IMG/VR virus record: IMGVR_UViG_2877285697_000002
Coordinates: 1 to 5,260 of that record
Strand: one strand, 5' to 3'
From: a virus
Lineage: Duplodnaviria; Heunggongvirae; Uroviricota; Caudoviricetes
DNA: 5,260 bases
Numbering within the stretch: position 1 is the stretch's first letter; the number at the start of each line of letters is the position of its first letter. Made by a program: the position numbers and the translations under genes. Below, in pieces: positions 1 to 5,260 of this stretch. Below the pieces are notes generated by a model. The model made no database searches. It saw nothing but the letters and a program-made list of their open reading frames with translations, and had not been told where the DNA came from.

Positions 1-210
1 AACCGTCCTCCGTATCCTGTCATACGCGTAAAACAGCCAGCGCTGACGTGATTTAGCACCGACGTAGCCCCACTGTTCGTCCATTTCAGCGCAGACAATC
101 ACATCACTGCCCGGTTGTATGCGCGAGGTTACCGACTGCGGCCTGAGTTTTTTAAGTGACGTAAAACCGTGTTGAGGCCAACGCCCATAATGCGTGCACT
201 GGCGCGACAT
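1..210 (-). CDS. insB: IS1 InsB (transposase catalytic part), 5' portion only; runs off the window edge. Normally expressed as InsAB' by a -1 frameshift.
   Basis: Minus-strand frame starting at the ATG at 210 translates [64 protein letters not shown]..., matching IS1 InsB. Overlaps the insA 3' end with the A6C slippery motif. Confidence 0.85.
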
Positions 211-404
211 CCGACGCCATTCATGGCCATATCAATGATTTTCTGGTGCGTACCGGGCTGAGAGGCGGTGTAAGTGAACTGTAGTTGCCATGTTTTACGG
301 CAATGAGAGCAGAGATAGCGCTGATGTCCGGCAGTGCTTTTGCCGTTACGCACCACGCCTTCAGTAGCGGAGCAGGAAGGACATCTGATGGAAATGGAAG
401 CCAC
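129..404 (-). CDS. insA: IS1 InsA (transposition regulator, N-terminal part of the InsAB' transposase)
   Basis: 91-aa translation [43 protein letters not shown]... is near-identical to IS1 InsA as I remember it, with a few substitutions (iso-IS1 variant). Includes the zinc-finger-like CPSC...CSHC motif. Confidence 0.92.
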
Positions 405-459
405 GCAAGCACCTTAAAATCACCATCATACACTAAATCAGTAAGTTGGCAGCATTACC

Positions 460-912
460 TGATTCGATATCCTTTTTCCTGGCTTCAAGTTTTTGTTGCA
501 ATGCGCAGATTTCATGAAACCTTTTTGTTATTTCGTGTTCTGCGCTAAACATGCATTTATCTCTGGTCGGAGTAGGGAGCAATATATCTTCGCCGTTGCC
601 GTCTTTCCCATATGAATACCATCCAACCCTTCTGCCAGATACAGTCAGATAAATTGAAGTAGAACGAATATCGCATGAGTAAAATGAACATCCCATCTTT
701 TCAAGTTCTTCACTTATAGCTACCAACTTGGATGATAACTGATCCACTTCCTCAGTTTTCTTCTTCCCGCCAAACGCAACAACTCTGGCGTCAAGTGCAA
801 GCTGGTTCTTTAGCTTTGTTACTTCTTCAAGTTCAGTGAACACCCCGGACTTAATTAAAGCGTTGCGTGCTATTACTTCTTTTATTCTCGTTGTTAAGCG
901 GATTGATGACAT
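460..912 (-). pseudogene. Hypothetical prophage early-left operon protein, apparently interrupted at its 3' end by IS1. The open frame continues 8 codons into the IS1 inverted repeat before stopping at 433.
   Basis: ORF-track frame 433..927; the likely true start is the ATG at 912 (MSSIRLTTRIKEV...), preceded by GAGAGG 6 nt upstream. The reading frame crosses the IS1 boundary at 459/460. No family recognised; the sequence is charged and looks coiled-coil-like. Confidence 0.5.
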
Positions 913-973
913 ATTAATTCCTCTCAAATAAGTGGTTTGCTACCTAATTTCATTTTCTGGCGACCAACACAAG

Positions 974-1357: not shown

Positions 1358-1522
1358 ATAGACCTCCTGATGAACTTTGGTGGTGTGGTAGGTGGGAGAC
1401 CCATTTTGACCTGTTTCGGCCTACTTCAATTCGGCAATAGTCCCGCAGGCCTCGCCGCTTTACGTGCGACATATTCCCGTCCATGAACCCTTCACCACAC
1501 CCCAAAGTTCACTTTGGTTATT

Positions 1523-1537
1523 GCGCTTTGTCAGCGC
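1523..1537 (-). promoter_or_regulatory. nutL boxB RNA hairpin (N-utilisation site)
   Basis: Minus strand reads GCGCTGACAAAGCGC: a 5-bp stem (GCGCU/AGCGC) with loop GACAA, matching P22 boxB as I recall it. Lies about 165 nt upstream of the N start. Not followed by a U-tract, so not a terminator. No convincing boxA found nearby. Confidence 0.6.
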
Positions 1538-1599
1538 CGTAGATTCATATTCGAATCGTTGTATATTCACCGCCCTGGTGAGTAGTGCGTCCTGCTGAT

Positions 1600-1710
1600 G
1601 GCTTAAAGATAATCTAGGTTATAGTGGTGGTCAATAACTTAATTTATGGATTCTGATAAATAAGTTATAAGTGATGGATAATAAAGGTATTTTATTTTTG
1701 TAAATGTTGC
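1600..1710 (-). promoter_or_regulatory. Putative OL/PL early-left promoter and operator region
   Basis: Candidate leftward promoter: -35 TTGACC (complement of 1629-1634), 17-bp spacer, -10 TATCTT (complement of 1606-1611). Shares motifs with the cI-cro intergenic region: GGTTAT-N11-ATAACTT at 1617-1640 versus 4016-4039; GTTATAAGTGATGG at 1664-1677 versus GTTATAAGTAATGG at 4052-4065; ATAATAAAGGT at 1680-1690 versus 4010-4020. Promoter hexamers assigned by eye only. Confidence 0.4.
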
Positions 1711-2695: not shown

Positions 2696-2722
2696 AAAAA
2701 AGCCTCATACAGTTGATGAGGC
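2696..2722 (-). terminator. Hairpin plus U6 tract directly abutting the ATG of the 177-aa gene; candidate terminator/attenuator that sequesters the SD
   Basis: Minus strand reads GCCTCAT-caactgt-ATGAGGC-TTTTTT-ATG. The 7-bp stem 2702-2722 contains GAGG 7 nt upstream of the start codon. Confidence 0.5.
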
Positions 2723-2884: not shown

Positions 2885-3226
2885 TCATCCGAAGAAGCAG
2901 CAATCCGGGTCAGCACGCACAAGCTCAAGCGCATCAGTCAGCGAAAGTTCAGTACTGTACTGATGCCATTTCATATCCTTCCGCATCCAATAGATTTTCC
3001 ATCTATCCAGAGAACGTATGTACTTGATTCTTGCTGATGGCAGGATGTTTGTTTCACCTGGGTTGCCCTGCCACACGGGGCGCTGTTCGCCGATATCTAT
3101 CGTTTGGTCATTGATGCTATAAACAATATCCAGTTCATTGCGGATATGTTCAGGCGGCCTTATGCTTTCAATGAATTGGTGAACTTCTTTTTTGACCGCT
3201 TGATATTCAAGGTCAGTGAACGCCAT
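2885..3226 (-). CDS. DUF3024-like small protein (113 aa), unknown function; immediately downstream of the repressor gene and probably co-transcribed with it
   Basis: Translation contains ...RPPEHIRNELDIVY...WKIYWMRKDMKWHQY...CCFFG, which resembles the conserved core of DUF3024 family proteins as I recall them (RPP.H.R..L...Y, W.LYWMRRDLKWH.Y, terminal FFG). SD GAGGAGG 4 nt upstream of the ATG at 3226. Only 37 bp from the repressor stop codon. Confidence 0.75.
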   Translation of the reverse strand: MAFTDLEYQAVKKEVHQFIESIRPPEHIRNELDIVYSINDQTIDIGEQRPVWQGNPGETNILPSARIKYIRSLDRWKIYWMRKDMKWHQYSTELSLTDALELVRADPDCCFFG

Positions 3227-3263: not shown

Positions 3264-3971
3264 TTACCAGCTATGCGATGACCAGAATACTCTGCCAATA
3301 ATCCTTACGGTTTTATGAAATTCATCTCTATCCATTACTTCATCCGGGTACTCTTCGCGATTTATTGATCTGATTATCACCGATGTAGGAGTGGCGATTA
3401 ATGTTTTTACTCGCAACAAATCAGACTGGCAAATAGCGTAGGTTTTACCATCTCTGATGGTGGTATCTTGTGTGTTAACACCAACAACATCGCCATCGTG
3501 AAGAGTTGGTTCCATGCTTTGACCTGTTACCCTTACCAGCTTGGCAGAACTTTCAGTTACCCCCATCTTTTTCAGATAGTACTTTCTGAAAACCAAAGAG
3601 AACTCTGATGATTCTTCTATCTCGCAGCTACCGCTTCCAGCCGAAAACGAAACGTTAAGAAGAGGCAATGCGACAAACTCGTCATCGTTTTTTTTAATGT
3701 CTTCCCATACCACAGCTTTTAAAGATGACTCACGGATATTGGATGGTTCTTCATGTGTACCATCCCTCATTTCACCAATACCAGAACTAAGCCATTCAGG
3801 GCGTACTTTTAAAGCATTAGCTAACTCAACCATCTTGCGAGATCCGTTTGTTTTACCGGATGACATCTTCTGTATGGCTGGCTGAGATATTCCAACCATG
3901 TCCGCAAGCTGTGATTGCGACACCCCTGCCGATCTCATGGCTGCATTTAGTCTTTCTGCGAATGTTTTCAT
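3264..3971 (-). CDS. cI: CI-like prophage repressor: N-terminal XRE-type HTH plus C-terminal S24 (LexA-like) autopeptidase domain
   Basis: HTH: QSQLADMVGISQPAIQKMSSGK. S24 signature GQSMEPTL (catalytic Ser) with a downstream LRVKTL (catalytic Lys). Candidate Ala-Gly cleavage site in FSAGSG. Divergent from a cro-like gene across an operator region. The start is placed at ATG 3971 (MKTFAERL...); the ORF-track TTG at 4001 has no SD and is judged less likely. Confidence 0.85.
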   Translation of the reverse strand: MKTFAERLNAAMRSAGVSQSQLADMVGISQPAIQKMSSGKTNGSRKMVELANALKVRPEWLSSGIGEMRDGTHEEPSNIRESSLKAVVWEDIKKNDDEFVALPLLNVSFSAGSGSCEIEESSEFSLVFRKYYLKKMGVTESSAKLVRVTGQSMEPTLHDGDVVGVNTQDTTIRDGKTYAICQSDLLRVKTLIATPTSVIIRSINREEYPDEVMDRDEFHKTVRIIGRVFWSSHSW

Positions 3972-4082
3972 ATCCACAAATCTATAACTACGGTTATCCA
4001 AAGTAAAATAATAAAGGTTATTGCTATTTTTTATAACTTGGGTTATCCTTGGTTATAAGTAATGGCTGAAAGAGGTATGCTC
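3972..4082. promoter_or_regulatory. OR-like divergent promoter/operator region (PRM leftward, PR rightward) with repeated GGTTAT/ATAAC half-sites
   Basis: Half-sites: ATAAC-n4-GTTATCC at 3984-4000 and 4033-4049; GGTTAT-N11-ATAAC at 4016-4037; GGTTATAAGTAATGG at 4051-4065. Candidate PR: -35 TTGCTA (4021-4026), 17-bp spacer, -10 TATCCT (4044-4049). Exact promoter elements not resolved. Confidence 0.6.
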
Positions 4083-4307
4083 ATGAATTTAGTAATTCAA
4101 CGAGCCTTGAAGATTGTCGGTAGTCAAAAGCGGCTTGCCGACAAGTGTGGTGTAACGCAGCCAGCAGTACACAAATGGCGGAAAGGCGGGCAGGTTTCTC
4201 CAGAGAAAGTTACCGCCATCGTTAACGCCACTGGAGGGCAGATCAAGGCTTACGAAATTCGCCCAGATTTACCACACCTGTTTCCAAAACCGAATCAGGC
4301 AGCATAA
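4083..4307 (+). CDS. cro: Cro-like small HTH regulator (Cro/YdaS-type)
   Basis: 74 aa from ATG 4083 with SD AGAGG (4071-4075) 7 nt upstream. HTH-like QKRLADKCGVTQPAVHKWRKGG. Divergent from the repressor gene; small size and position are typical of Cro. Confidence 0.8.
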   Translation: MNLVIQRALKIVGSQKRLADKCGVTQPAVHKWRKGGQVSPEKVTAIVNATGGQIKAYEIRPDLPHLFPKPNQAA

Positions 4308-4314
4308 GTAACAC

Positions 4315-4360
4315 CGCTATTTTCACAATGGGCATTCGTCCTACGTCGCTGACAAAGCGA
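4315..4360 (+). promoter_or_regulatory. nutR-like site: boxA-like CGCTATTTT followed by a boxB hairpin
   Basis: boxA-like 4315-4323 (CGCTATTTT versus consensus CGCTCTTTA). boxB 4346-4360 TCGCTGACAAAGCGA: 5-bp stem with loop GACAA, the same loop as the nutL boxB at 1523-1537. Located between cro and cII, as in lambda. Confidence 0.55.
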
Positions 4361-4445: not shown

Positions 4446-4745
4446 ATGGAACAAACAAGTTACAGCAAACTATCACAGCGCGATGTTGATCGCGCAGAAA
4501 CAGATTTACTCATCAACCTGTCAACGCTTACCCAGCGCGGTCTGGCAAAGATGATTGGCTGTCATGAATCGAAGATAAGCAGAACGGACTGGAGATTTAT
4601 TGCTTCGGTCTTGTGTGCTTTCGGAATGGCATCAGACATCAGTCCGATTAGCAGGGCTTTTAAGTATGCGCTTGATGGACTCACCAATAAAAAACGCCCG
4701 GTGTGCAAGACCGAGCGTTCTGATCAAATACAAATGGAATTCTGA
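4446..4745 (+). CDS. cII: CII-like transcriptional activator (lambda CII family)
   Basis: C-terminus ...LTNKKRPVCKTERSDQIQMEF closely matches lambda CII ...LTNKKRPAATERSEQIQMEF (from memory). HTH region KMIGCHESKISRTDW aligns with lambda AVGVDKSQISRWKRDW. Position right of cro matches. Confidence 0.88.
   Translation: MEQTSYSKLSQRDVDRAETDLLINLSTLTQRGLAKMIGCHESKISRTDWRFIASVLCAFGMASDISPISRAFKYALDGLTNKKRPVCKTERSDQIQMEF
4455..4468 (-). promoter_or_regulatory. Candidate CII-binding site / PRE -35 region (TTGC-N6-TTGT on the minus strand)
   Basis: Complement of 4455-4468 reads TTGCtgtaacTTGT, one mismatch from the TTGC-N6-TTGC CII recognition repeat. Lies in the 5' end of cII and is oriented leftward, as in lambda PRE. 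Confidence 0.35.
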
Positions 4746-4777
4746 GGTCATTACTGGATCTATCAACAGGAGTAATT

Positions 4778-5260
4778 ATGACATACGAAAATGACAAATT
4801 CCAGGTTCTGAAGAGCATGAAGGTGCCAGATGATTTTAAATCAAATGGCTTTGTTTATGTGCTTTCGAATGAGTGCATGCCAGGAATTTATAAGATTGGG
4901 ATGACTAAGCATTCACCAGAAGTTAGGGCTAAAGAAATTTCAGCCTCTACTGGCGTTCCTAAGCCATTTAAGGTGATAGCAGCCTTTCATTCAAATAATC
5001 CCGCATCAGATGAAAAACTCATTCATAAAGCCTTTGCAAAAGAGAGGCTTAGTGATAATCGAGAGTTTTTCAAGCTTGAAGATAATGATCTTTCTGAATC
5101 TCTAAATGAAATAAGGGCGCTGGTTGGCCCTGAAAGAAATGGCGAGACGGCAGAATACGCAATTTACGACTCATTCATTTCTTTTCGCCATGAAAATGAG
5201 CTTGATCTTAATGAGGAGCTTATAGAGCAAGGTCTGGGTAGTGTAGTTGGTCTGAGGTAG
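4778..5260 (+). CDS. T5orf172 / GIY-YIG-like domain protein (160 aa); putative nuclease-fold accessory protein
   Basis: N-terminal region GFVYVLSNECMPGIYKIGMTKHSPEVRAKEIS...FKVIAAFH...REFFK fits the T5orf172 (MUG113) / GIY-YIG pattern as I recall it (YVL.N...KIG.T...R..E...H..FF). SD AGGAG 6 nt upstream of the ATG at 4778. Stop codon TAG at 5258-5260. Confidence 0.7.
   Translation: MTYENDKFQVLKSMKVPDDFKSNGFVYVLSNECMPGIYKIGMTKHSPEVRAKEISASTGVPKPFKVIAAFHSNNPASDEKLIHKAFAKERLSDNREFFKLEDNDLSESLNEIRALVGPERNGETAEYAIYDSFISFRHENELDLNEELIEQGLGSVVGLR

Follow-up and report, generated by a model that had tools for sequence, protein, structure and literature searches.

Two GACAA-loop boxB hairpins at the nutL and nutR sites of a lambdoid prophage immunity region

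The immunity region and its two hairpins

The open reading frames and Pfam matches of the 5,260-nucleotide stretch of DNA analysed here (the window) outline a standard lambdoid immunity region. The minus strand carries the gene of the N antiterminator (974-1357; 127 aa; PF25694 N_peptide, E=2e-15), with an arginine-rich motif in residues 7-26, and the gene of the cI repressor (3264-3971; HTH_3 and Peptidase_S24), and the plus strand carries cro (4083-4307; YdaS/P22_Cro/HTH_3 Pfam matches) and cII (4446-4745; PF05269 Phage_CII, E=2e-34). A candidate pL promoter (1634..1606, minus strand; TTGACC-17-TATCTT) was located with the promoter scan, the operator repeats and the leader alignment, and its transcript would start near 1599 according to the alignment with the lambda pL leader. 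The candidate pR promoter (4021..4049, plus strand; TTGCTA, 17 nt, TATCCT), which was found by eye and is under the threshold of the promoter scan, lies inside the oR repeats. Operator-like repeats are present at 1608-1699, where the pL-like promoter overlaps them, and at 3982-4075 beside cro; the repeats of oR, at 3983-3999, 4032-4048 and 4052-4075, recur within 1608-1699.

One hairpin, the boxB of nutL, is read on the minus strand at 1537..1523 (GCGCUGACAAAGCGC; GCGCU-GACAA-AGCGC), and the other, the boxB of nutR, on the plus strand at 4346..4360 (UCGCUGACAAAGCGA; UCGCU-GACAA-AGCGA). The plus-strand letters are GCGCTTTGTCAGCGC at 1523-1537, giving GCGCTGACAAAGCGC when read on the minus strand, and TCGCTGACAAAGCGA at 4346-4360. 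Each hairpin has five Watson-Crick pairs in its stem, of which U-A closes the GACAA pentaloop, so that the two hairpins claimed in the preliminary description can be read directly in the sequence. The 11-mer common to both (GCTGACAAAGC, with one mismatch or fewer) has two copies in the window against 0.10 expected, one on each strand and both in the right orientation, and none of the 200 dinucleotide shuffles contained at least two copies. The minimum-free-energy folds of the local transcripts contain both boxB hairpins. The nutR region showed no excess of stability over shuffled sequence (z=+0.46), as expected for a hairpin of 5 bp, and an Rfam scan of the whole window with E up to 1 gave no match. 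The two hairpins were also considered as terminators and rejected as such; there is no U-tract after either of them, and the terminator scan reported neither.

The nutL boxB lies at about +63 from the expected pL start and 166 nt 5' of the ATG of N, and the nutR boxB lies between cro and cII, 39 nt from the cro stop and 86 nt from the cII start. Both are in the early transcripts and in the sense orientation, downstream of pL and of pR-cro, as the position of a nut site demands, and nutL is followed downstream by the gene of a cognate N, which has an arginine-rich motif at its N-terminus. The gene map, the pL-like promoter and the operator repeats agree with the earlier placement of the hairpins downstream of the early promoters and upstream of N and cII.

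The region is a mosaic. Its oL, the genes between cI and oL, cI and cro are of the SH2026Stx1/Stx2-1717 type, and N, nutL and nutR are of the 933W type, with junctions at about 1590, immediately after the conserved leader sequence CAGCAGGACGC, and at about 4318, inside the nutR boxA (CGCT|A/C|TTT). The interval between cI and oL, at the position of rex, holds three minus-strand genes (at 2162-2695, 2885-3226 and 1854-1988), which comprise a DUF3024 gene, a 177-aa ORF without a Pfam family and a 44-aa ORF, and which stand in for the stk kinase cluster of 933W; terminator-like hairpins are present between them at 2702-2722 (minus strand) and 2140-2163. A gene with a T5orf172/MUG113 domain (GIY-YIG-like family; 4778-5260) directly follows cII, at the usual place of the lambdoid O replication gene, and the best matches to E. 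coli genomes stop at 4741-4783. At the left end, a copy of IS1 fills 1-459 (insA ORF at 129-404, minus strand), and matches to E. coli genomes begin at 460. Downstream of N, an Nmad5-family gene (433-927, minus strand) has its 3' end next to the IS1 copy or overlapped by it. An interruption of the leftward operon at IS1 is probable, and this insertion downstream of N may truncate the operon, so that the biological output in the prophage is uncertain.

Correspondence with the nut sites of 933W and H-19B

A megablast search of phage genomes with the window matched hundreds of Stx phages. At the protein level, the window N shares 100% of its residues with the N of 933W and 98.4% with that of HK97, and it differs from that of H-19B in three residues (E60D, K80E, I113L), all of them outside the arginine-rich motif. 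The GenBank record of 933W (AF125520) contains features annotated as 'nutL; putative N-utilization leftward' and 'nutR', which by alignment correspond to window positions 1523-1589 (minus strand) and 4315-4360 (plus strand); these mapped limits coincide with the boxB limits and the start of the nutR boxA given in the preliminary description. The nutL leader of H-19B (AF034975) shows no difference from that of the window between the transcript start and the end of the hairpin that follows boxB, and the nutR of H-19B is identical from boxA to boxB except at window position 4332. The 15-mer of the nutL boxB is identical in H-19B, 933W and HK97, and the same holds for the nutR boxB. Both in vivo and in vitro, H-19B N acting with H-19B nutR causes antitermination at tR1 as well as at further terminators, and N with NusA/NusG protects the spacer and boxB of nutR, but not boxA, from RNase H (PMC3526286, PMC4499122). 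The H-19B nutR RNA has two hairpins (PMC3526286). The hairpins of the window are known nut sites, annotated in 933W and experimentally characterised in H-19B, and are not new. Their use in support of the N gene call holds as well, with an N that is the N of 933W and with the 933W annotation at the same positions. Among the other matches, an N with 99% identity to the window N is encoded on a 394-bp contig that bears the name Xanthomonas pisi DSM 18956, and this contig is most likely a contamination of the assembly by E. coli or phage DNA.

Further hairpins accompany both boxB elements. The spacer hairpin of nutR (4330..4341, plus strand; GGGC-AUUC-GUCC) corresponds to GGAC-AUUC-GUCC in H-19B. 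Position 4332, which is G in the window and A in H-19B/933W, is the sole difference from these phages between boxA and boxB of nutR, and the resulting change of an A-U pair to G.U in the spacer keeps the dyad symmetry. On the nutL side, all on the minus strand, there are a leader hairpin (1567..1581; UCACC-AGGGC-GGUGA), a spacer hairpin (1542..1557; GAUUC-GAAUAU-GAAUC) followed by UACG and boxB, and a hairpin just 3' of boxB (1502..1517; CCAAAG-UGAA-CUUUGG) that is conserved in the N leader. The N leader (1500-1600, minus strand) is homologous to the lambda N leader in its 5' end, in the CACC...GGUG hairpin and in CAAAG...CUUUGGGGUGUG after boxB. More precisely, the leader hairpin of the window is homologous to CACC-AUGAA-GGUG of lambda, which precedes the lambda boxA, and at the place of the hairpin after boxB lambda has CAAAGC-AGAA-GGCUUUG followed by GGGGUGUG. 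The RNAalifold consensus of six N leaders of the window class contains four hairpins, with compensatory changes only in the boxB stem; the other three, including the nutL spacer hairpin, have invariant stems and variable loops in the six relatives. By analogy with lambda, the N leader may have a role in RNase III processing or in N autoregulation.

A boxA-like element had been reported at nutR, and none clearly at nutL. The nutR element (4315..4323, plus strand; CGCTATTTT) matches CGCTCTTTA at 7/9 positions and sits at the start of the nutR feature annotated in 933W; at the same place, HK97 has CGCTCTTTT and SH2026Stx1 has CGCTCTTTA. A scan of the 5-kb window for the boxA consensus with two mismatches or fewer gave 13 matches against 15 expected, so that the bare match at nutR is at chance level; its position and homology support it as a putative boxA. 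Between pL and the nutL boxB, there was no match to the boxA consensus within two mismatches. The nutL feature annotated in 933W begins at CGCATTACT, for which the window has CGCACTACT (1581..1589, minus strand), a poor boxA (5/9) that belongs to the conserved pL leader, present in lambda too, and that does not appear to be a convincing boxA. The position of the lambda boxA is occupied by AAUAUACAACG in the alignment of the window leader. The lack of a match at nutL agrees with the earlier remark on boxA. Neely and Friedman are said to have found, in 2000, a reduced host-factor requirement of H-19B N, with boxA reportedly dispensable and with independence of NusB and S10. A degenerate or absent boxA would fit such a reduced requirement.

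The covariation analysis was based on 15 distinct nut sites from relatives of N, which were obtained by tblastn in the phage collection and in whose immunity regions a mechanical listing was made of the hairpins at the two nut positions. In the boxB stem, 97% of the cells were paired, as against 26-45% in slid-register controls, and three of the five stem pairs showed compensatory changes, the basal pair being G-C, U-A, A-U or C-G. The observed covariation score was matched by none of 500 shuffles. Covariation and the RNAalifold consensus agree that boxB is conserved as a structure, as is expected of a nut-site hairpin. The exact nutL boxB was present in 79 of the 80 viral contigs encoding a window-type N; the N proteins of these loci are 99-100% identical, and the loci were therefore not usable for covariation. 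A profile search of genome contigs with the N alignment yielded three loci only. The preliminary description had proposed covariation of the stem as a check and had named a lack of conservation in relatives as evidence against its reading; the hairpins proved to be kept in the relatives, with compensatory changes in the stem. In SPN9CC, whose N is 86% identical to the window N and has GT instead of GN in the motif, the nutL boxB (about 4880-4895 of its record; GCUCC-GUCAA-CGAGC) has C.C next to the loop, as does the P22 nutR, and U at loop position 2, and the nutR boxB closes with U.G.

Loop type, N motif class and boxB recognition

The nut sites of P22 read ...GCTCTTTAACTTCGATGAT-GCGCTGACAAAGCGC-G (nutL) and ...CGCTCTTTACCAATCTGAA-CCGCCGACAACGCGG (nutR). 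Alignment to them, which had been suggested as a check of the P22-like label, showed that the nutL boxB of the window is identical to that of P22 in 15/15 positions and that GACAA is present in all four loops, those of nutL and nutR in the window and in P22. In a BLASTP comparison of the window N with P22 gp24, only the C-terminal 30 residues aligned (67% identity). The arginine-rich motifs, FKGNSRSRRRERLKAKA in the window and FAGNAKTRRHERRRKLA in P22, were aligned with MAFFT and are identical in 8/18 positions, with F, G, N, R, R, E, R and A invariant, indicating a related motif but not the same one; to the P22-class motif GNAKTRRHERRRK, the window aligns as GNSRSRRRERLK. A phmmer search of PDB sequences with the window N and P22 gp24 returned nothing relevant, the peptide of 1A4T being too short. 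The complex of the P22 peptide with boxB (PDB 1A4T) has the C of the GACAA loop extruded, in contact with peptide residues His7 and Arg11 (PMC12550061), a numbering that fits only if counted from Asn. At the aligned positions, the window N has Arg16 (for His7) and Lys20 (for Arg11).

Two groups of phages share the nutR scaffold GGACATTCGTCCTACGTCGCTGA(C)AAAGCGA, in which the single C is the only difference in the segment. The loop on this scaffold is GACAA in 933W, H-19B, HK97 and SPN9CC, and GAAA in VT2-Sakai, ev017, POCJ13, S137 and SI8. A pattern scan for the scaffold, with any base or none allowed at the position of the C, returned 120 viral contigs, none of which had an inserted base other than C, and N was found in 78. 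Counted per contig, in a set of 78 whose members are not phylogenetically independent, a GACAA loop at nutR was accompanied by an N motif of the FKGNSRSRRRERLK type and by GACAA at nutL in 37/37, and a GAAA loop at nutR by an N motif of the ...RRR[AE][RH]RA type in 41/41, with GAAA or GCAA at nutL in 40 of these and an off-target hairpin pick in one. The residue aligned to Arg11 of the P22 peptide is Lys/Arg in the GACAA classes, and Ala in the GAAA classes and in lambda. An N whose arginine-rich motif belonged to a class that does not bind GACAA would have contradicted the preliminary description; what we observed is that the loop type tracks the motif class.

The freely exchanged immunity cassette separates N/nutL from nutR, and the matched pairs of N with nutL and nutR therefore point to selection. 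The window shares its cI/cro cassette with SH2026Stx1, which has a P22-type N and P22-type nut sites, and this again argues for selection for cognate N-boxB recognition. The N of SH2026Stx1 (625-966 of its record) is a hybrid, with a P22-type N-terminus and arginine-rich motif and a lambda-like C-terminus (...RKPRSEMGVTCVGRQKMKLGSKPLI); it is 68% identical to gp24 over 79 aa, and nutL and nutR of this phage are both P22-type. The hybrid shows that motif and boxB move as a unit, separately from the end of N that binds the polymerase.

These comparisons, although made on sequence, support a P22-like specificity of the window N for its boxB. The label would be wrong if N recognised boxB as in lambda, with the fourth loop base flipped out, and we regard this as very improbable. 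The motif core of the window, SRRRERL, does resemble TRRRERRA of lambda as much as TRRHERRR of P22, and close relatives of N use plain GAAA tetraloops, which a fold of the lambda type would also give. However, GACAA with its fourth base out leaves GACA, which is not a GNRA sequence, whereas with its third base out it leaves GAAA, which is one, and the fold of P22 is favoured for this reason. Moreover, both P22 sites have this very loop, and over 15 nt the nutL hairpin does not differ from that of P22; the window N is without a tryptophan at the position of Trp18 of lambda, and it is basic where the P22 peptide touches the flipped C, a place at which lambda and the GAAA classes have Ala.

The GACAA and GAAA groups could conceivably be naturally orthogonal N-boxB classes that arose by a one-base indel in the loop and a few substitutions in the motif. 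We advance this idea tentatively and consider it rather less than even in likelihood. No description of such classes was found in the literature searched, the specialist work of 1998-2000 being outside its reach. If the idea were true, the module of the window would supply one member of a minimal natural pair on which to study the switching of RNA-peptide specificity, and it would explain why mosaics with a mismatched N and nutR are not seen.

Predicted function and relation to known systems

We consider it very probable that the hairpins represent boxB of nutL and boxB of nutR in a lambdoid prophage with an N/nut module of the 933W/H-19B/HK97 type, and that they work by N antitermination. After loss of the repressor, RNA polymerase would start at pL and pR and transcribe each nut site, and the arginine-rich motif of N (residues about 7-26) would bind the boxB loop in the nascent RNA. 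As in the complex of P22 N with boxB, the third base (C) of GACAA would most likely be extruded, and the loop would fold like a GAAA tetraloop of the GNRA kind. While tethered to the RNA, N would contact NusA, itself on the spacer, and, by way of its C-terminal part, RNA polymerase, and the polymerase modified in this way would read through the Rho-dependent tR1 after nutR and the terminators downstream of N, turning on the delayed-early genes. In this scheme, the binding mode, the dependence on NusA and the antitermination are modelled on published work on H-19B, P22 and lambda, and N-dependent read-through at the sites of the window would be expected from H-19B in particular, whose nutR differs by one spacer base.

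It is very unlikely that the hairpins serve mainly other roles, nutR in the loading of Rho at tR1 (rut) and the nutL boxB in the translational autoregulation of N, with antitermination only secondary. In lambda, N at nutL reportedly represses its own translation, according to work by Wilson and co-workers in 1997. The N leader of the window is homologous to that of lambda, including the hairpin after boxB and GGGGUGUG, and the nutR of H-19B overlaps the rut site of tR1 and is co-occupied by Rho and N (PMC3526286). In lambda and H-19B, however, these roles add to antitermination and do not replace it, and at nutL as well as at nutR the loop changes along with the N motif class, which indicates that N binding is the selected property. 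An overlap with rut at nutR and N autoregulation through nutL and the leader are plausible as additional and non-exclusive roles. Finally, that the two hairpins are chance palindromes without function, a reading open to elements of only 15 nt each and to a nutR region without excess folding energy, is refuted already by conservation in 79 of 80 loci encoding window-type N and by the compensatory stem changes, and with two copies of the shared 11-mer against 0.10 expected, correct orientation and position of both hairpins and sequences the same as those of experimentally validated nut sites, it can be put at the very edge of the conceivable.

Antitermination by N at both sites being the preferred reading, the prophage carries an intact early-antitermination module, consisting of N and both nut sites. 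In Shiga-toxin phages, such modules drive the expression of the delayed-early and ultimately of the late (Stx) genes, and recognising the module helps with annotation and with the question of whether the prophage could still be induced. For the biology of N antitermination itself, the module brings nothing new; the clean co-variation of loop type and N motif class across the relatives is a by-product of modest interest.

Among known systems, the modules of 933W, H-19B and HK97 have the same spacer hairpins as the window. Unlike them, the module of the window adjoins cI/cro of the SH2026Stx1/Stx2-1717 type and other genes between cI and oL, and has IS1 downstream of N. The modules of VT2-Sakai/ev017/POCJ13 and S137/SI8 share with it the N family, the C-terminus of N, the nutR scaffold GGACATTCGTCCTACGTCGCTGA-AAAGCGA and the arrangement of a spacer hairpin and then UACG before boxB, but they differ in having GAAA (or GCAA) tetraloops without the C, and Ala where the window N has Lys20.

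Lambda resembles the window in gene order, in the position of the nut sites, in the homologous 5' N leader and in a 5-bp boxB stem that is closed by U-A and carries a GNRA-like pentaloop. Its loops are GAAGA and GAAAA, in contrast to GACAA in the window, and in the published structures of the lambda boxB the fourth loop base is flipped out and stacks on Trp18. In lambda, moreover, both sites carry a canonical boxA (CGCTCTTA), and NusB and S10 are required, whereas boxA is weak or absent in the window. P22 likewise has a canonical boxA (GCTCTTTA) at both sites, with a short spacer without a hairpin, in contrast to the degenerate boxA at nutR, the lack of one at nutL and the spacer hairpins of the window, and its nutR boxB (CCGCC-GACAA-CGCGG) has C.C next to the loop. 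Between the window N and P22 gp24 (127 and 100 aa), the motif core F-GN--RR-ER and the C-terminus LP-VA-YAAG-RKSKQ-TAR are common and the rest is unrelated, while the GACAA loop is shared at both nut sites.
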